A stretch of 32,823 nt of DNA from an uncultured Atopobium sp. (GCA_963507085.1 CAUORV010000001.1:1-32823); one strand, 5' to 3'. Positions 16,196-31,841 are shown, numbered from the stretch's first letter. Numbers and translations: made by a program. Notes: generated by a model not told the origin, from the sequence alone.

Positions 16196-16301
16196 GACTC
16201 TTTACGGCGTACATGTCCTAGACATTTGCGCCGTTGAGTATAAACAGACGTTTTTTCACCACGGTCTAGCCCGAGGGTTAGTTCCAGAAGGAGGATTGGC
16301 A

Positions 16302-17507
16302 ATGGCCAAGGAAAAGTTTGACCGCACAAAGCCACACGTAAACATCGGTACCATTGGTCACGTCGACCACGGTAAGACTACCCTTACCGCAGCAATCACC
16401 AAGGTTCTCTCTGAGACCGAGGGCTGCAAGGCAGACTATACCGCCTTCGAGAACATCGATAAGGCTCCAGAGGAGCGTCAGCGTGGTATTACCATTTCCG
16501 TTGCTCACGTTGAGTACGAGACTTGGGAGCGCCATTACGCTCACGTCGACTGCCCTGGCCACGCAGACTACATCAAGAACATGATTTCTGGTGCAGCTCA
16601 GATGGACGGCGCAATCCTCGTTATTGCTGCAACCGATGGTCCTATGGCTCAGACTCGTGAGCACATCCTTCTTGCACGTCAGGTCGGCGTTCCTTACATC
16701 GTCGTCTTCCTGAACAAGTGCGACATGGTCGACGATGACGAGCTCATCGACCTCGTCGAGATGGAGACCCGTGACCTTCTCTCCGAGTACGACTTCCCAG
16801 GTGATGACCTTCCAATCATCCGTGGTTCCGCTCTCGGCGCTCTTAACGGCGAGGAGAAGTGGGTTGAGTCCATCCGTGAGCTCATGCACACCGTTGACTC
16901 CTACATCCCAACACCAGCTCGTGACAACGAGAAGCCATTCCTGATGGCAATCGAGGACGTCATGACCATTTCTGGTCGTGGTACCGTTGCTACCGGCCGT
17001 GTTGAGCGTGGTGAGCTCAAGCTTAACGATCCAGTCGAGATCGTTGGTATTAAGCCAACTCAGAGCTCTGTTGCTACCGGCATTGAGATGTTCCGTAAGA
17101 CCATGGACTTCTGCGAGGCTGGCGACAACGTTGGTATTCTTCTTCGTGGTGTTAAGCGCGAGGACATCGAGCGCGGTCAGGTTCTCTGCAAGCCTGGTAC
17201 CGTTACTCCACACAAGAAGTTCACCGGTGAGGTTTACGTTCTTACTAAGGAAGAGGGCGGCCGTCACACCCCATTCTTCTCTGGTTACCGTCCACAGTTC
17301 TACTTCCGTACAACTGACGTAACCGGCGACATCTACGAGCTCACCGATGCAAACGGTGGCAAGGTAGAGATGGCTATGCCTGGCGACCACATCACCGTTG
17401 GCTGCGAGCTCATTCACCCAATCGCTCTTGAGCAGGGTCTGAAGTTCGCTATCCGCGAGGGTGGCCACACCGTCGGCGATGGCCGTGTTTCCACCGTCAT
17501 CGAGTAA
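16302..17507 (+). CDS. tuf: Elongation factor Tu
   Basis: [57 protein letters not shown]. Confidence 0.99.
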
Positions 17508-18372: not shown

Positions 18373-18918
18373 ATGGCTAAGCGCTGGTATGTAGTTCACA
18401 CCTATTCAGGTTATGAGAACAAGGTAAAGACAGACCTTGAGCACCGTATTGAGACCTATGGCCTTGAGCGTGCTGTTGTTGATATTCAGATTCCTACTGA
18501 GGAAGTTACTGAGGTCAAGGACGGCGGCAAGCGCGAGACCAAAGAGTCCAAGGTTTTCCCAGGTTACGTTCTTGTTCGCATGGAGCTAGATGATAATACT
18601 TGGGCTGTTGTTCGCAACACCCCAGGCGTAACTGGTTTTGTTGGCATTGACGGCAAGCCAGTTCCTCTGCGTCGTGATGAGTTCGATAAGATCATGCGTC
18701 GCGGCGGTATGAAGACGGGTAGCCCTGTACCTAAGCGTACAGCAACCAATATTGAGGTCGGTCAGGCAATTCACGTTCTTTCTGGTCCTCTCGCTGACTT
18801 CGACGGAACTGTTTCTGAGGTCAACGCAGAGTCCGGCAAGATTAAGGTTATGCTCACCATCTTTGGTCGCGAGACTCCGGTTGAGCTCACCATGGATCAG
18901 ATTTCCCTGATAGACTAG
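18373..18918 (+). CDS. nusG: Transcription termination/antitermination factor NusG
   Basis: WYVVHTYSGYE, FPGYVLV, TPGVTGFVG, KOW domain, IFGRETPVEL. Confidence 0.98.
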   Translation: MAKRWYVVHTYSGYENKVKTDLEHRIETYGLERAVVDIQIPTEEVTEVKDGGKRETKESKVFPGYVLVRMELDDNTWAVVRNTPGVTGFVGIDGKPVPLRRDEFDKIMRRGGMKTGSPVPKRTATNIEVGQAIHVLSGPLADFDGTVSEVNAESGKIKVMLTIFGRETPVELTMDQISLID

Positions 18919-22567: not shown

Positions 22568-22618
22568 ACTAGGTTGCGACAATTGCCACCTTCCACCCTT
22601 TTGAAGGAGGACAACCTG

Positions 22619-25600
22619 GTGTCTACCGCTAAAAAGACTTCCCTCACCACGCCTCAGGCGCATACTGGACGCAGGACGTTCAGTAAGATTCCCGCAGCTA
22701 TGGAGCTGCCAAATCTGATTTCTGTACAGAAGGAATCATTTGAGCGCTTTATGGGAGAGGGCCTTGCAGAGTCCTTCGCTGAGTTCTCGCCAATTGAGAA
22801 CAGCGCAGGAACCATGCAGGTCACCTTTGGTGACCATCAGTTCGGCGACCCCGCCAATTCAATGGCTGAGTGTCGTGCAAAAGACATTTCATATCAAGCA
22901 CCTCTTTTTGTTGACGTCCGTTTTGTCAACAAAGAGACTGGTGAGATGAAGGAGCAGCTTGTCTTCATGGGTGATTTCCCATTGATGACCGAGCGCGGTA
23001 CCTTCATCATCAACGGTTCTGAGCGCGTTGTGGTTTCGCAGCTCGTTCGTTCACCTGGCGTGTACTTCTCGTCAGAGATGGACAACGGTGTTCTGGTCCA
23101 CAAGTCTCAGTTCATTCCTGCACGTGGTGCATGGCTTGAGTTTGAGGTTGATAAGCGCGGCCACCTGGTCGTCTCCATTGACCGCAAGCGTCGCCAGAGC
23201 GCTACCGTCTTCCTCCGTGCACTTGGCATTGCTGTTACCGATGACGAGATTCTCTCGCTCCTCGGTGATTCCGATGTTGTTCGCAACACACTTGAGCGTG
23301 ACGTTGCAACCACACGTGAGGATGCTCTTATCGAGATTTATCGTCGTCAGCGTCCAGGCGAGCCACCAACTGTTGACTCCGCCCGTTCTCTGCTTGACGG
23401 CCTCTTCTTCAACGAGCAGCGCTATGACCTTGCTCGCGTTGGTCGTTACAAGATCAACAAGAAGCTTGAGGAAGAGATTCCTGCAGACGTTCGTGTCCTT
23501 ACCAAAGAGGACATTGTCGCAGCTCTTCAGTACCTTCTTGCAGTGCATGCAGGTGATGAGTCTAAGCACCTTGATGACATTGACCACTTTGGCAACCGCC
23601 GCGTTCGTACCGTTGGTGAGCTGGTCCAGAACCAGTTCCGCATTGGTATGAGCCGCATGGAGCGCGTTGTTCGTGAGCGTATGGCATCTCAGGACGCAGA
23701 CGACATCACTCCACAGTCTCTGATCAACATCCGTCCAATTGTTGCTGCAATCAAGGAGTTCTTCGGTTCTTCTCAGCTTTCGCAGTTCATGGACCAGGCA
23801 AACCCACTTGCTGGTTTGACCCACAAGCGTCGTCTTTCTGCTCTGGGACCTGGCGGTCTTGCAGGACACAAGTCCGGCTCCAGCCGTCGTACCAACGTTC
23901 CTACTGCAGTCCGCGACGTTCACAACTCGCACTACTCCCGTATGTGCCCAATTGAGACTCCTGAGGGACCAAACATTGGTCTTATCGGCTCCTTGGCACT
24001 GTACGCTCACGTAAATGAGTACGGCTTTATCGAGGCTCCTTATCGTAAGGTCACAGGCGGTGTTGTCTCTGACGACATTGTCTGGATGACTGCAGACGAG
24101 GAGGAGAATCACATTATTGCTCCTGCTAACACCCCAATTGACCCTAAGTCTAAGAAGTTTGTTGAGGTTGACGCAGACGGCAAGATTGTTGATGCAGACC
24201 GCGTTATTGCACGTACCCGCGACTTCGACGGTTCCTTCGGTGCACCTGCACAGGTTCCTGTTGAGGACGTTGACTACATGGACGTTTCTCCACGTCAGCT
24301 TCTCTCCGTCGCAGCTAACCTCATTCCATTCCTTGAGCACGACGACGCAAAGCGTACCCTCATGGGTGCAAACATGCAGCGTCAGGCAGTGCCTCTGATC
24401 CAGTCCCACGCTCCATTTGTTGGAACTGGTATGGAGGGTCGCGCAGCTCAGGACTCTGGTGAGCTTATTTGTGCAGAGTTTGCCGGCGAGGTCACCGAGG
24501 TAGACGCAGCTCACGTTGTCATCTACTCCGATGAGCACGGTTCTCAGCGCTACGATCTTCCTAAGTACGAGCGCTCTAACCAGTCCACTTGCATCAACCA
24601 CCGTCCAATTGTCACAGTTGGACAGAAGGTCGAGAAGGGCCAACCAATCGCAGACGGTCCATCTGTTGACCACTCTGAACTGGCACTTGGTGCAAACCTT
24701 ACCGTTGCTTACATGCCATGGGAAGGCTACAACTACGAGGACGGTATTATCGTCTCCGAGCGTGTTGTTCAGGAAGACCTCCTGACCTCCGTTAACATTT
24801 CCCGCCACGAGATTGATGCTCGTGACACCAAGCTTGGTGCTGAGGAAATTACCCGCGAGATTCCAAACCTTGGTGAGGACATGCTCGCAAATCTCGACGA
24901 TGACGGTATCATTCGCATCGGCGCTGAGGTTGGCCCTGGCGATATTCTGGTTGGTAAGGTCACTCCTAAGGGTGAGACCGCTCTGACCGCAGAAGAGCGC
25001 CTGCTTCGCGCAATCTTCGGTGCTAAGGCACACGACGTTCGCGATACTTCCCTCAAGATGCCACACGGCTCCTATGGCCGCGTTGTTGACGTTGTTCGCT
25101 TCAGCCGTGAGGCTGGAGACGACCTGCCTCCAGGAGTAAACGACCTGGTCCGTGTCTTTGTTGCTCAGCGCAGAAAGATTCAGCAGGGCGATAAGATCGC
25201 TGGTCGTCACGGTAACAAGGGTGTTATTTGTAAGGTTCTCCCAGTTGAGGACATGCCTTACATGGCAGATGGTACCCCAGTAGACGTTATTCTCGACCCA
25301 CTGGGCGTTCCTTCCCGTATGAACGTTGGTCAGCTGCTTGAGTGCCACCTTGGCTGGGGTGCTGCACATGGTTGGGATGACGATGACGCAGATTCCAAGC
25401 GTTACGTTGAGGGCCCAATTCCTGTTGCAACACCACTCTTTGACGGTGCTACTGATGAGTCCGTTGCAGAGATTGTTCGCCGCACCAACATCAACATGAT
25501 CAACAAGGCTCTCAAGGAGTACGGCGAGAACATGCGTGAGGAGTTTGTTCCACAGCTCAACGAGCGTGGTAAGACTACCCTCTACGATGGCCGTACCGGT

Positions 25601-26134
25601 GAGGCTTTCAAGAGCCCAATTACCGTTGGTGTTTCTTACATCTTGAAGCTCGGCCACATGGTTGACGATAAGATCCACGCACGTTCAACTGGTCCTTACT
25701 CTCTTGTTACCCAGCAGCCTCTGGGTGGTAAGGCACAGTTCGGCGGTCAGCGCTTTGGTGAGATGGAGGTTTGGGCACTGTATGCATATGGTGCTGCTAA
25801 CGTCCTCCAGGAGATCCTCACCGTTAAGTCTGACGATACCAACGGCCGTGTTAAGACCTATGAGTCCATTGTTAAGGGCGAGAACATTCCTACTGCAGGA
25901 ATTCCTGAGTCCTTCAAGGTTCTGGTCAAAGAGATTCGCTCCCTGGCACTTGACATTGAGCCAATCTCCTATCGTAAGCGTGCAAATACCGCAAAGGTCA
26001 CAGATCCTGAGGAGAAGAACGCTGTTGAGATCCTCAACGACCTTGGCTTCACTGAGGTAACCGCTTCCGACCTGTCCCAAGACGCTGAGGGTGCATCCGC
26101 ACTTGTAGGCGACGCGACCACCGATAAGGAGTAG
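22619..26134 (+). CDS. rpoB: DNA-directed RNA polymerase subunit beta
   Basis: [14 protein letters not shown], Rif cluster [50 protein letters not shown] 22619 follows AAGGAGG. Confidence 0.99.
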
Positions 26135-26139
26135 CGACT

Positions 26140-29100
26140 GTGGCAGATTTCGATTCCACTGAATTTGACGCTATTAAAATTTCTCTAGCGTCTGCTGACG
26201 ATATCCGCGGTTGGTCCTATGGCGAGGTAAAGAAGCCTGAGACCATCAACTACCGTACCCTTAAGCCAGAAAAGGACGGCCTTTTCTGCGAGAAGATCTT
26301 TGGACCTGTAAGGGACTGGGAGTGCGCCTGCGGTAAGTACAAAGGCATTCGCTTCAAGGGCATTACCTGCGAGCGCTGCGGTGTTGAAGTTACCACCGCA
26401 AAGGTTCGTCGTGACCGCATGGGCCACATCGAGCTTGCTGCTCCTGTAAGCCACATCTGGTACTTCAAGAGCCCAACCAGCTTCCCTCTGGCACGTCTTC
26501 TTGACATCAAGAGCAAGGACCTCGAGAAAGTCCTCTACTTTGCATCTTACGTAATCACTAGTGTTGACACTGAGGCACGTGAGGCTGACGTAGACGATCT
26601 TCGTGAGGAGCTTGCAGCAGATATCGAAGAGCTCGACGCAGAGCGCGACGATCAGATTGCACGCCTTCGCGAGCAGGGCCAGCCACAGGATGACGAGTTT
26701 GGCGATTTTGAGCCTCTTTCTGAGGACGAGATTCGTGCAGGCGTCGCTGATCTTGAGGAAGAGTACGAGGAAGAGAAGACGCTTCGTCGTGAGGCTTTCG
26801 AGAAGTTCATGCAGCTTGAGACCAGAGAGCTCATCTCCGATGAGGGTCTGTTCTCCGAGCTTAAGCGCTACTATGGCATCTACTTCAAGGGTGGCATGGG
26901 TGCTGAGGCAGTCCGCGACCTTCTTTCCAATATTGATCTTGAGAAAGAGGCCAAGGAGCTCCGCGCTATTATCGCCAATGAGGATGCTCAGAAGCAGAAG
27001 CGCGAGAAGGCCATTAAGCGTCTTGAGATTGTTGACGCCTTCCTTAAGGGTGGCAACGATCCAGCTAACATGATTCTTGACGTTGTACCAGTTATTCCAC
27101 CTGATCTTCGTCCAATGGTTCAGCTTGATGGTGGCCGTTTTGCAGCTTCCGACTTAAACGATTTGTATCGTCGTGTTATTAACCGTAACAATCGTCTTAA
27201 GCGCCTGCTTGACCTTGACGCACCTTCCATCATTGTTAACAACGAGAAGCGCATGCTTCAGGAGTCCGTTGACGCTCTGTTTGACAACGGTCGCCGTGGC
27301 CGTCCTGTTACCGGCCGTGGTGGACGTCCTCTGAAGTCTCTTGCTGAGGCTCTTAAGGGTAAGCAGGGTCGCTTCCGTCAGAACCTTCTGGGTAAGCGTG
27401 TTGACTACTCTGGCCGTTCCGTCATTGTTGTTGACCCACACCTGAAGCTGCACCAGTGCGGTCTTCCATCCGCTATGGCACTTGAGCTCTTCAAGCCATT
27501 TGTCATGCGTCGTTTGGTTGAGCTCCGCAAGGTTGAAAACATTAAGGGCGCAAAGCGCGCTATTGACCGTGGTACCCCAGTTGTTTGGGACGTTCTGGAT
27601 GAGGTCATTCAGGACCGCCTCGTTCTTCTCAACCGCGCACCTACCCTTCACCGTCTGTCTATTCAGGCATTTGAGCCAGTCCTTATCGAGGGTAAGGCAA
27701 TCCACCTGCACCCACTGGTCTGCGCACCATTCAACGCAGACTTCGACGGCGACCAGATGTCTGTCCACGTGCCACTTTCTACTCAGGCACAGACAGAGGC
27801 TCGCATTCTGATGCTTTCCAGCAACAACCTCAGAAGCCCTGCTTCTGGTAAGGTTCTGACCGTTCCTTCTCAGGATATGGTCTTTGGTGTCTACTATCTC
27901 ACTTCCGAGAAGACCGGTGAAGACGCTAAGACTCTTACCTTCGCAAGCTTTGAGGATGCTCTTCTGGCTATTGAGGCCAACCGTGACCTTGATATCCAGG
28001 CAAAGGTTGTTGTCCGCGTAAGCTCCAAGGATGCAAACGTTGCTGATAGCGATCGCGCTATCTTCCGCGTTATGACTGGCCGCGGTCAGTATGAGGACCT
28101 GGACGTTACTGAGGGTACTAAGCGCTTTGAGACCACTGTTGGTCGCATTATCTTCAACCGTCAGTGCCTGCCAGAGGATTACCCATACATCAACTACAAG
28201 ATGGTTAAGTCCGACATTGGTGTTCTGGTCAACGATTGCTGCGACCGTTACCCAATGGCTGATGTTGAGCCAATTCTGGATAACATCAAGAAGACTGGTT
28301 TCCACTATGCAACTCTTGCTGGTCTGACCGTTTCTGTTTGGGACGCTGTTATTCCTCCACACAAGCCACAGCTGCTTCAGGAGGCACAGGACCGCGTTGA
28401 CCAGATCAACGAGTACTACGAGGACGGCTTCCTTTCCGAGCGAGAGCGTCACGTTGAGGTTGTTAACGCATGGACCGAGTGCACCGATTTTCTCGGCTCT
28501 GAGATGCTTACAGGCTTTGCAGAGAACAACCCAATTTACATGATGGCTGACTCTGGAGCTCGTGGTTCTAAGACACAGCTTCGCCAGCTTGCTGGTATGC
28601 GAGGCCTGATGGCGGATATGTCCGGTGAAACCATCGACCTTCCAATTAAGGCAAACTTCCGCGAGGGTCTTGAGCCTCTCGAGTACTTCATTTCTACCTA
28701 TGGCGCTCGTAAGGGTCTGGTAGATACCGCATCCCACACCTCCGACTCTGGTTACCTGACTCGTCGACTCGTCGACGTTGCACAGGACGTCATTGTTCGC
28801 GAGGAGGACTGCGGCACTGATGAGGCAGTTACCTATCCTCTGATTAAGCCTGGTCAGACTTCTGTTGATACTGACCTGATTGGCCGCTGCACCCTTGAGG
28901 ATGTCTGCGATCCAAACACTGGCGAGGTTCTTATCCCTGCTGGTGGCTATGTTGAGTCCAAGCAGGATCTTGAGCGTCTTGTTGAGCATGGCCTTGCTAA
29001 GGTTCAGCTACGCGCGCTTCTGACCTGTAAGTCTAAGTATGGCGTCTGCCAGAAGTGCTACGGTTGGGATCTTTCCACCCGTCGTCCTGTCAACATTGGT

Positions 29101-30570
29101 ACTGCAGTTGGTATTATCGCAGCTCAGTCCATTGGTGAGCCTGGTACTCAGTTGACCATGCGTACCATTCACTCCGGTGGTGTTGCAGGCGCAGACGATA
29201 TTACGCAGGGTCTTCCTACCGTTGCTCGTATGTTCGACGTCGTCGGTAACGTCAACGAGAAGATTCTTGGCCGCGAGGCTGACCTGGCTCCTGTTTCTGG
29301 TGTTCTTCACATTACCCCAGAGACCACCGAGTACCTGCTGCGTATTGTTGATGCAGACGATGCTTCCCGTGTTATCGAGGAGTGGCGTGTACCTGCATCC
29401 GTCCGCTTCATGCCTGGCATTGAGGATGGCGTTGTTGTCCGTGCTGGTGACCAGATTACCCGCGGCTTCGTCAACTTCCGTATGCTCCGTCGACTCACTG
29501 ACATTGAGTCCACTATGCACACCTTCGTTGAGTCCGTTAAGGACGTCTATACCTCCCAGGGTGTAGAACTCAACGATAAGCACATCGAGGTTATCGCACG
29601 TCAGATGCTTCGTCGTGTTCAGGTTACCAACCCAGGTGACTCTTCGTACCTGCTTGGTCAGTACGTGGACCGCTACGTCTTCGCAGAGACTGTCCAGAAC
29701 ATTGCTCTTGCTGGTGGTACTCCACCAGAGGCAGAGCCAGCAATCCTCGGTACTCTGAAGGTTGCAAGCTCTATCGATTCTTGGCTCTCCAGCGCATCGT
29801 TCATCCGTACTGCAGGCGTTCTTACCTCTGCAGCTATCGAGGGCGACGTTGACCACCTGCTTGACCTCAAGTCCAACGTTATTGTTGGTAAGCAGATTCC
29901 TGCAGGTACGGGTCTCTCCGCATACAACGATGTTGAGCTTACCTACCACGGCACCAAGATTGATGGCCCAACCTCTTCTCTTGCTAAGTCTCTTCCAGAC
30001 TGGGCACCAGCAGAGCTTAAGGACATCGAGGAGCAGCTTCCTAAGCAGCTTGACTGGGTCAACGAGGATTACAACGGTGGCGTTTACTCCAAGAATGGCC
30101 GCACGCTTTCAAGCGAGGACGCAAAGCTGTACCTCTTCGACGATCTTGGCGTGTCACAGCGTTGGACCAACAAGTTCAGCGAGGTTGGCATTGAGACCGT
30201 AGGCGATCTTATCGGCAAGACTGAGGAAGACCTGCTTCGCATTGATGGTATTGGTGCAAAGGCAATCGAGGAGCTTCGCGATGGCCTTGAGGCTCGTAAC
30301 CTCCTTTACATCCTTGAGCCAGAAGAGGATGAGGCTGATTCTGAGGATCTTTCTCAGCTGCTCAACATGGTCTTCTCGCCAGAAGGCGATGGTGGCCTGA
30401 TGCTGGGTTCCGCAGCTCCATCCACTCACTCTGATTACACCGAGACACTCATCGGCTCTTCTTCCGACGAGGTCAGCCCTGATGTAATCAACGAGGACCT
30501 TGGTTCTCTGGATGACCTGCTTAACCAGGTTGTCCGTATGGACGCTGAGGCAGACGGCGAAGACGAGTAA
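26140..30570 (+). CDS. rpoC: DNA-directed RNA polymerase subunit beta', with C-terminal alpha-CTD-like extension
   Basis: Zn finger [17 protein letters not shown], catalytic [15 protein letters not shown]. Acidic coiled-coil insert (~26563-26808) at the position of the actinobacterial beta' insert. 1476 aa. Confidence 0.99.
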
Positions 30571-30620
30571 GTAATCTCGCCTGATACATCAAATTTTTCG
30601 GAGATTAACTCCGATACACA

Positions 30621-30654
30621 AGAGGACTTCAGCCGTTAGCTGGAGTCCTCTTTT
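30621..30654 (+). terminator. Intrinsic terminator after rpoC
   Basis: AGAGGACTTCAGC-cgtta-GCTGGAGTCCTCT followed by TTT. Confidence 0.8.
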
Positions 30655-30753
30655 AGTTGGGCGTAGACGGGAGAGTATCGGTATATACTAATCTTTTATG
30701 AATTACGTTTGGTAAGTCATGAACTCTGCGACTCTCAAAAGATAGGAATAGCA

Positions 30754-31137
30754 ATGGATAGTCATTCCCACGACTCTGAACAGTGCGAGCACACCCATTC
30801 TACGTGCGATTACGTTTCTGATCAGAAGCTGAACGAATACCTGGTAAACGACGACATCATCTATGATGCAACCCAGATTTTTGATGCACTGTCTGATTTC
30901 ACGCGATTCCAGATTTTGGGCGCCCTGGTAAACGGCGAGAAAAGCGTAACAGAGCTGCAAGAAATGCTTTCGGTATCTCAGTCAGCAACCTCTCACCAGT
31001 TGCGTCTTTTGCGCGACCGCGGTCTTGTCAATGCAAAAAGAGATGGCAGAAAAGTTATCTATTCACTTGCAGATGAGCACGTCACAACGCTAATCCGCGT
31101 TGGCCTTGCACACGCCGCACACCTGTTGGGTCATTAA
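30754..31137 (+). CDS. ArsR/SmtB family metal-sensing transcriptional repressor
   Basis: FDALSDFTRFQIL, SQSATSHQLRLL, RDGRKVIYSL; alpha5 site D-x-H-x10-H-x2-H; His/Cys-rich N-terminus. Confidence 0.92.
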   Translation: MDSHSHDSEQCEHTHSTCDYVSDQKLNEYLVNDDIIYDATQIFDALSDFTRFQILGALVNGEKSVTELQEMLSVSQSATSHQLRLLRDRGLVNAKRDGRKVIYSLADEHVTTLIRVGLAHAAHLLGH

Positions 31138-31166
31138 CATACGTATCGGAATTGTGGAGAGAACTT

Positions 31167-31841
31167 ATGGGTGAGTATCGCATCATTGAAGTTAAGCAGA
31201 GTGTTTTTGCAGCTAACGAGAAAAGCGCCGATCAACTAAGAGAAGAAATGAAGAAAAAGGGAACTCTGCTGGTAAACCTTATGTCTTCTCCAGGTTCTGG
31301 CAAAACTACCACCCTTAAAAAGACCATTGCTGCCCTGAAAGATAAGGTTTCCATTGCTGTTATGGAAGCTGATATTGATTCAGATGTTGATGCTGCTGCT
31401 ATTTCAGAAACGGGCGTGAAAGCCATTCAGCTGCATACTGGCGGCATGTGTCACCTCGATGCGCATATGTGCGCTCAGGGTCTTGAAGGTCTCAACGCAG
31501 GTGATGTGGACCTGATTTTTTTATAGAACGTTGGGAACTTGGTATGTCCGGCAGAGTTTGACACAGGTGCCGGCATAAACGTCACTATTCTTTCTGTTCC
31601 CGAAGGCGACGATAAGCCGTTGAAATACCCTTTGATGTATCAGGTCTGTGATGTGGTGCTTGTTAACAAAATAGACGTAGCACCGTATTTTGATTTTGAC
31701 CTGGAAAAACTCAAGGAAAATGTGGCCCTTAGAAATCCAAAGGCGGTTGTTATTCCTTTCTCTGCCAAAACTGGGGAAGGATTAGACGCTTGGACTGAAT
31801 GGCTTTCTCGCAAAGTTGCTGAGTGGAAAAGCAGTCAGTAA
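31167..31841 (+). pseudogene. hypB: Hydrogenase nickel incorporation GTPase HypB, interrupted by an in-frame TAG at 31524-31526
   Basis: SSPGSGKTT, GGMCHLDA, LIFL*NVGNLVCPAEFD, EGDDKPLKYP, NKID, SAKTGEG. The two track ORFs share one frame, and the stop replaces the conserved Glu of ENVGNLVCP. Confidence 0.85.

Follow-up and report, generated by a model that had tools for sequence, protein, structure and literature searches.

The rpoC gene of the DNA analysed here, a stretch of 32,823 nucleotides from an uncultured Atopobium sp. (GCA_963507085.1 CAUORV010000001.1:1-32823; hereafter the window), encodes a β′ subunit of RNA polymerase that continues beyond its usual end into a true homologue of the α subunit's C-terminal domain (α-CTD) and, behind it, an acidic tail bearing conserved short motifs. 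Sequence profiles, a sequence search of the Protein Data Bank (PDB) and the predicted fold all lead to this assignment. The β′ domain adds to the two α-CTDs of the enzyme rather than replacing them, and the fusion is real and under selection.

The gene is a single open reading frame at 26140-30570 (+ strand) of 1476 residues, with a GTG start and a TAA stop at 30568-30570. Its product contains the five Rpb1 domains of Pfam (1-5), extending to residue 1168, and the match to the canonical β′ model TIGR02386 (1540.7 bits, cut-off 963.5) ends at residue 1263, leaving about 213 residues beyond it. The β′ equivalog model NF011498 of NCBIfam (1459 positions), on the other hand, covers residues 2-1473 on model positions 2-1451 with 2835.9 bits (cut-off 1437), and it matches the tail alone with 392.8 bits at model positions 1198-1451. 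The last universally conserved β′ motif, IPAGTG, lies at 29896-29913 (+ strand), and the appendage starts after it. The 218 further residues that we count agree with the roughly 220 given by an earlier reading of this DNA made by eye (the sequence-only reading). Tail residues are numbered in the following from the I of this motif, which is invariant in an alignment of 27 tails from four families of the window's order.

The extra domain, an α-CTD-like double helix-hairpin-helix (HhH) at 30109-30303 (+ strand; Pfam envelope 30139-30291), was assigned from the Pfam profile PF03118 (RNA_pol_A_CTD), a phmmer search of the PDB, an AlphaFold2 model and Foldseek. PF03118, with a gathering score of 23.8 bits, matches β′ residues 1334-1384 with 34.1 bits in the whole protein (E 2.2e-8), 36.9 bits in the tail alone (E 3e-9) and 39.4 bits in a six-frame search of the source genome, and these residues are also hit by rpoA equivalogs of NCBIfam, with E values between 1e-8 and 1e-3. 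When the last 216 residues were searched against the PDB, all 51 distinct sequences found at E <= 1 were RNA polymerase α subunits, the best being 8i23_A (1.9e-6) and the Bacillus subtilis α-CTDs 3gfk_B (3.4e-6) and 1z3e_B (~3.5e-6). The AlphaFold2 model of the 224-residue tail, built on the 27-row alignment, has a mean predicted local distance difference test value (pLDDT) of 60.5, with 73-81 over the HhH domain and 39-64 in the rest. In this model the domain is predicted to be a compact helical double HhH that superposes on solved α-CTDs: the top Foldseek matches in the PDB are all α-CTDs (TMt 0.83-0.87, root-mean-square deviation 1.3-1.5 Å), including 9dvt_A (0.87, 1.4 Å over 62 columns), 1z3e_B (0.83, 1.5 Å over 65) and 7vpd_S (0.86, 1.3 Å), and the matches listed between ranks 1 and 50, with gaps, are only α-CTDs or complexes containing them. 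The 57-residue stretch quoted in the sequence-only reading (LFDDLGV...EARNL) is indeed found at 30133-30303, and the resemblance to α-CTDs that had been noticed by eye is thus borne out by profile, PDB matches and fold, as is its fusion to the end of β′, the domain lying within the single 1476-residue frame. The other half of the label that it had been given, relationship to the NusA AR1/AR2 repeats, did not stand. These repeats (HHH_5 type) are likewise a double HhH module in the transcription machinery, but HHH_5 matches the window β′ with only 17.0 and 21.0 bits, under its cut-off of 27, and α-CTD models score better throughout; membership of the NusA-AR family was therefore rejected. A related tail from another family of the class (L021, of type B as defined below) passes HHH_5 with 31.7 bits.

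The α subunit of the same genome has kept its own domain, a point that the sequence-only reading had singled out for checking. The rpoA gene lies on a separate contig (C2), and its 317-residue open reading frame carries a CTD scoring 98.2 bits with the canonical residues kept. On β′ the α-CTD-like domain is present in one copy and is not joined to the α N-terminal dimerisation domain. Its identity is 36% to the α-CTD of its own genome, 32% to that of Escherichia coli and 41-94% to the other β′ copies at class level. To compare contact residues, we aligned β′ domains from 13 families with the α-CTDs of the source genome and of E. coli, taking R265, N268, C269, G296, K298 and S299 of the latter to form the "265 determinant" for DNA, and 261 and 287 to mark the presumed σ- and CAP-contact surfaces, respectively. 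All 13 β′ copies preserve the counterparts of R265, G296 and K298, and nine of them, the window included, that of N268, because of which the core of the predicted DNA-contact surface is regarded as retained. The C269 position is K in 10 of the 13 copies; in the window the R, N, G and K of the determinant are kept, C has become K, and S has become A. The sequence of the second hairpin corresponds to the canonical G-hydrophobic-G form of an HhH motif. The σ- and CAP-contact positions of E. coli α are not kept: G replaces E261 in all 13 copies, and V287 is replaced by E in the window and by E, D, T, S or A elsewhere, with T285, E286 and L289 mostly kept.

The fusion occurs throughout the window's order, as a survey of the class (Coriobacteriia) shows. 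A search with the tail found a match in 294 of 301 genomes of the class; in the window's order the match lies in a frame of β′ length in all 143 sampled genomes (f1 28/28, f2 33/33, f3 79/79, f4 3/3), with E values from 8e-37 to 6e-140 and frames of 1455-1515 residues except at contig ends. This answers the call of the sequence-only reading for a survey of relatives. An identical or near-identical tail is seen in genomes of the same genus that are complete and consist of one contig (G086, G164), and 2132 proteins of the protein database match it at E <= 1e-3, the named organisms being Lancefieldella, Atopobium, Olsenella, Thermophilibacter and Tractidigestivibacter, by which the window is assigned to the Atopobiaceae. 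A further search among representative proteins returned mostly fragments and unrelated multi-repeat α-CTD-like proteins, and, since full-length β′ proteins are clustered at 50% identity there, it is uninformative on distribution. That such a fusion exists was already on record: the end-to-end match of NF011498 means that curators have modelled the long form of β′ for annotation, and a precomputed Pfam label stands on thousands of proteins. The CDD title of PRK14906, the same model, is that of a β′/α domain fusion protein, the label shown here being only "subunit beta'". Our literature searches found no paper on a β′/α-CTD fusion. In a recent survey of β/β′ domain architectures, as far as its available text goes, terminal residues beyond the shared core were masked (PMC11515920), and the accessible part of another paper makes no mention of Coriobacteriia (PMC5121209). 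What is new here is the retained core of DNA-contact residues, the tail motifs, the three architectures on one tether described below, and the one- and two-domain fusions elsewhere in the phylum.

Between IPAGTG and the domain lie an anchor and a linker. The anchor, a 17-residue motif of the form LPDWAPxELKxIExxLP (29992-30042, + strand), was recognised in the alignments and is kept class-wide whichever end module follows, tails with zinc-finger ends included; L33, P34, A37, P38, L41 and P49 are invariant in the 27 tails, and in the AlphaFold2 model residues 39-46 of the tail form a short helix (pLDDT ~62-64). It is followed by a short linker rich in Gly, Tyr and Asn (30043-30108, + strand; pLDDT 43-56), the length of which varies between families (gapped columns 60-90 of the alignment). 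Within the HhH domain a run of 15 residues is invariant in the 27 tails, with S95 in this run nearly so, and the G-I-G-x-K-A of the second hairpin is invariant as well. The remaining 88 residues (30304-30567, + strand; pLDDT 39-63) form the acidic tail, with 25 D/E against a single K/R. The sequence-only reading had described this segment as acidic and of low complexity; the acidity is confirmed, the plain low complexity is not, as D151, L155, M158, F160, P162, G171, L205 and L209 are invariant in the 27 tails of four families. These residues mark short motifs newly recognised here in the seemingly low-complexity segment: a 13-residue motif plus (D/E), a hydrophobic-Gly element, (E/D)ELIG, and LxxLDxLL. 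Tail motif 1 (14 residues, 30343-30384, + strand), with the invariant D151, L155, M158, F160 and P162, is predicted, at low confidence, to form an amphipathic helix (149-160 in the model), and its block stands before the HhH domain in other families. The C-terminal motif (15 residues, with LGSLDDLL as part of it; 30487-30534, + strand) contains L205 and L209 and is covered by a second predicted helix, 203-218, of low confidence (pLDDT ~60). When the HhH domain (tail residues 68-138) and the acidic tail (139-224), both given as alignments, were modelled as a complex, the score was 0.00, in a run with no controls that speaks neither for nor against self-binding.

Comparison across the class reveals three architectures of the β′ end. 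In type A, that of the window's order (f1-f4), the anchor is followed by a short linker, the HhH domain and the acidic motif block. In type B (12 tails; f5, f7, f8, f9, f10, f11, f12, f13, f18 and f24), the acidic motif block comes after the anchor and the HhH domain stands at the extreme C-terminus; the block reads ...D(I/V)DVSAFxGxxF(D/E)P..., together with MLGG and ELIGG in some families. In type C (eight tails; f6, f14, f16, f17, f23, f25 and f31), anchor and acidic block lead to one or two modules of the form Cys-x-Cys-x-Cys-x-His (CCCH), for which Pfam zf-TRM13_CCCH or DUF5763 is over the cut-off in six of the eight tails (L059, L060, L061, L062, L063 and L073), L070 being under the cut-off and L071 without a match. 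The acidic blocks of types A and B, lying after and before the domain, respectively, look related. A hidden Markov model of the 27 type-A post-domain tails scored 19.9, 14.7, 13.0, 8.4, 4.0, 3.5, 3.5, 2.1, 1.9, 1.1 and -1.2 bits on 11 type-B pre-domain linkers, and three of these beat all 2200 composition-preserving shuffles, the best of which reached 9.5 bits. In the case of f6, a type-B profile aligns with β′ only over its first 105-112 positions, that is, anchor and acidic block (E 8e-37 to 4e-33). Since the acidic block is kept with either head and on either side of it, it would appear to be a functional unit of its own. More families of the class have the block ahead of the domain. In f20 and f21 (two genomes) the type-B profile found rpoA only. 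Three smaller observations belong here: the end of L072 (G235, f28) shows, after anchor and acidic block, an Arg/Pro/Ala-rich reading without HhH or zinc modules, perhaps because of a frameshift in G+C-rich DNA or as a fourth type of β′ end; a type-B genome has a free-standing 84-residue frame (G057:C6:19871-19999) with a sub-threshold α-CTD-like match of 22.9 bits; and f9 and f13 regularly give three matches in the class-wide tail search.

Taken together, we consider it an even chance that the appendage combines a tethered head for nucleic-acid binding with an acidic leash of regulatory function at the C-terminus of β′. The HhH head would be a third tethered contact module of the enzyme, most likely binding duplex DNA in the manner of an α-CTD, by means of the minor-groove arginine, which is retained, and of the G-I-G-x-K hairpin, and it would reach DNA near the polymerase from an anchor point other than that of the α-CTDs. 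In solved structures the β′ C-terminus adjoins ω on the RNA-exit and upstream side of the enzyme, from where upstream DNA or nascent RNA would be within range of a linker of ~70 residues. The acidic block may act as a leash that, in competition with nucleic acid, masks the head, or the nucleic-acid-binding surfaces of the enzyme, until it is displaced, in a way that would resemble region 1.1 of σ70, the acidic C-terminus of the Bacillus δ subunit or the acidic tail of HMGB1; alternatively, it may dock on a conserved surface of the enzyme or of a factor. We infer a nucleic-acid-binding head because the arginine and the Gly and Lys of the hairpin are invariant, because the second hairpin reads as canonical and the type-B tail L021 passes HHH_5, and because the head has been exchanged, with the tether kept, for zinc modules of nucleic-acid-associated kinds. 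The last point, a swap found in seven families, agrees better with a head that binds nucleic acid generically than with a specific dock for activators. Binding of DNA, activators or NusA, as proposed in the sequence-only reading, may be envisaged for the β′ domain.

A number of observations weigh against this reading. In 13/13 β′ copies S299 has become A, N294 has become G, and the arginine is followed by Trp (Tyr in one copy), giving a surface unlike that of an α-CTD, which might serve protein contact. The HhH domain is net acidic (15 D/E against 8 K/R), although the α-CTDs compared are likewise acidic. The model shows no confident docking of the acidic tail, the pLDDT of which is only 39-63, and eight of the 11 type-B linkers score no higher than the best shuffle. 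Zinc modules may bind proteins as well as nucleic acids. Finally, the placement of the β′ C-terminus next to ω is carried over from solved structures, and our searches found no structure of a Coriobacteriia polymerase.

Some of these points lead to an unlikely but substantial alternative, in which the head is a protein-docking module that recruits a transcription factor, NusA or another conserved partner and makes no important nucleic-acid contact. α-CTDs are well-known hubs of protein contact, with Spx, CAP, RpaA and AfsR complexes among the fold matches; the W/Y after the arginine, G294 and A299 give the β′ copies an invariant surface signature of their own; and amphipathic motifs such as those of the acidic tail are typical of peptide-protein docking. 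Nevertheless, the known protein surfaces of α-CTDs are not kept, as seen at positions 261 and 287, the DNA-contact trio of R265, G296 and K298 is invariant, and the unrelated CCCH modules of seven families would all need to recognise the same partner. A role on RNA, with the head binding the nascent transcript, or the transcript together with the ribosome or the termination machinery, near the RNA exit and acting in elongation, pausing, termination or coupling, seems to us rather improbable. The alternative heads match TRM13-type CCCH fingers and a primase-type finger, families that act on RNA or single-stranded nucleic acid, the β′ C-terminus lies beside ω on the RNA-exit side, and the operon includes nusG and ribosomal protein genes, though this is true of every rpoC. 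HhH domains, and notably the α-CTD, however, bind to the minor groove and backbone of duplex DNA, it is the residues of this mode that are kept, and no RNA-binding family is found among the Pfam and NCBIfam matches of the window tail.

We think it very unlikely that the appendage is mainly structural, with anchor and tail stabilising the assembly of the core enzyme, for instance by supporting or partly replacing ω, and the HhH domain being a passenger. The anchor comes directly after the part of β′ that ω embraces in solved enzymes, and ω itself gives weak matches (18.6-29 bits, over the Pfam cut-off in two of five genomes of the order); yet ω is still found in 5/5 of these genomes, and in a passenger neither the long invariant run across four families nor R265, G296 and K298 across 13 would have been kept. 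CarD-type RID domains occur in small frames in four of the same five genomes and in Mfd in all five, and there is no sign that the tail replaces ω or CarD-type proteins. RbpA was not found in any of the five, an absence that does not discriminate because 349 of the 401 genomes sampled from the phylum gave no RbpA either. As to a read-through, frameshift, assembly artefact or decaying relic, it can be set aside for practical purposes. The source genome is, it is true, a draft in 174 contigs, fragmented and 78.7% complete, and the neighbouring hypB-like gene has an in-frame stop. Against this stand the tail in the complete genomes and in every one of the order's 143 sampled genomes, the end-to-end match of NF011498, the 2132 database proteins, the invariant residues in 27 tails, and the end of the gene, where the stop codon is followed, 50 nucleotides past the TAA, by a terminator-like hairpin (30620-30656, + strand; 14-bp stem at 30620-30652 and then a T run, from a ViennaRNA fold of 30571-30670). 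With a profile match over the cut-off, and with the tail in every relative of the order that was sampled, neither of the two objections foreseen in the sequence-only reading, lack of an α-CTD or HhH profile match and an artefact absent from relatives, holds.

Returning to the tethered head on its leash, how the window's appendage compares with known systems can be summarised as follows. With α-CTDs (PF03118; 1z3e_B, 3gfk_B, 1lb2_B, 9dvt_A) it shares the sequence family, the five-helix double-HhH fold, the flexible tether, and the equivalents of R265, G296, K298 and, in the window, N268. It differs from them in its place at the end of β′, where it is a single copy with another anchor point on the enzyme, in its own signature (RW, K269, G294, A299 and G261), and in the acidic motif-bearing tail that follows, which α-CTDs lack. 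NF011498 (PRK14906) matches from end to end, but it is an annotation model without a word on function, tail motifs or alternative architectures. σ70 region 1.1, the C-terminal domain of Bacillus δ (RpoE) and the HMGB1 tail are alike in that a strongly acidic, largely disordered segment adjoins a nucleic-acid-binding module, on RNA polymerase or beside it, a likeness for which no sequence relationship was sought or found; the window tail differs from these in having specific invariant hydrophobic motifs and not plain acidity.

Similar fusions occur outside the class. In a sample of 401 genomes of the phylum, including 15 flagged as unpublished and used for tallies only, there is mostly a single match per genome, in a frame of α-subunit length. 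Outside the class, five genomes with extra matches were followed up and four loci were read. One α-CTD-like domain stands on the β′ end in f46 (L055, 62.5 bits) and f52 (L056, 51.4 bits), and two in f46 (L057, 81.7 bits) and f53 (L058, 65.4 bits), with an acidic end after the domain or domains in each. These fusions of other Actinomycetota are therefore like that of the window in order, with PF03118 domains (51-82 bits) after the β′ end and then an acidic end, and unlike it in lacking the LPDWAP anchor and the shared tail motifs; L056, in addition, has His at the position equivalent to R265. Their domains are 28-36% identical to the window's, and as 60 residues are too few for a tree, none was built. 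In one actinobacterial genome with two domains on β′, PF03118 matches the 414-residue α frame twice as well (G315:C14:35316-35765; 88.9 and 35.6 bits), which would be an α with a duplicated CTD. Separately, proteins of 800-1030 residues (P0130, P0136, P0140 and P0144) consist of 10-12 tandem α-CTD-like domains; the three multi-repeat proteins that were scanned give 268-452 bits with PF03118, summed over 11-12 stretches.

Textbooks present the α-CTD as the point at which UP elements and class I activators make contact, and with a third copy, anchored on the large subunit opposite, the possible arrangement of promoters and regulators would be a different one, across a whole bacterial class with prominent human gut and oral genera. 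The exchange of heads on a constant tether suggests that the trait under selection may be the tether with any nucleic-acid-binding head, rather than α-CTD chemistry as such. A broader proposal, which we put forward tentatively and regard as doubtful, is that in Coriobacteriia the C-terminus of β′ serves as a modular platform for regulation that is built into the enzyme, made of a conserved anchor and acidic short linear motifs with interchangeable nucleic-acid-binding heads (an α-CTD-like HhH on either side of the block, or zinc fingers of the CCCH kind), the acidic motifs recruiting a conserved partner or gating the DNA channel. If true, this platform would be a function hard-wired into the polymerase that other bacteria supply by separate factors, and a loose bacterial counterpart of the "CTD" of the largest subunit.

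The gene neighbourhood is the usual cluster, in the order tuf - nusG - rplK/A - rplJ/L - rpoB - rpoC. Pfam matches confirm EF-Tu (16296-17507), NusG (18373-18918), L10, L7/L12 and rpoB (22574-26134); the open reading frames for L11 and L1, at 19015 and 19563, lie outside this confirmation. Towards its N-terminus, the window β′ has a highly charged, coiled-coil-like insertion at residues ~140-300 (26560-27040), inside a long Rpb1_1 match (residues 8-416 against 312 profile positions), presumably resembling the lineage-specific β′ insertion of actinobacteria. Directly 3′ of rpoC, at 30709-31137 (+ strand) and upstream of the hypB-like gene, lies an ArsR-family helix-turn-helix regulator (HTH_5, 47.9 bits) with a His/Cys-rich N-terminus, and at 31152-31841 (+ strand) a gene for a HypB/CobW-type GTPase (Pfam cobW, 47.9 bits). 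The two resemble a metal-sensing pair and occupy the place where rpsL and rpsG usually come. The GTPase gene is interrupted by an in-frame TAG at 31524-31526, within the conserved motif ...IFL-E-NVGNLVCPA, where five relatives with loci extending to this point (L007, L009, L010, L011 and L015) have Glu; the TAG is either a nonsense mutation or a sequencing error of the draft genome.

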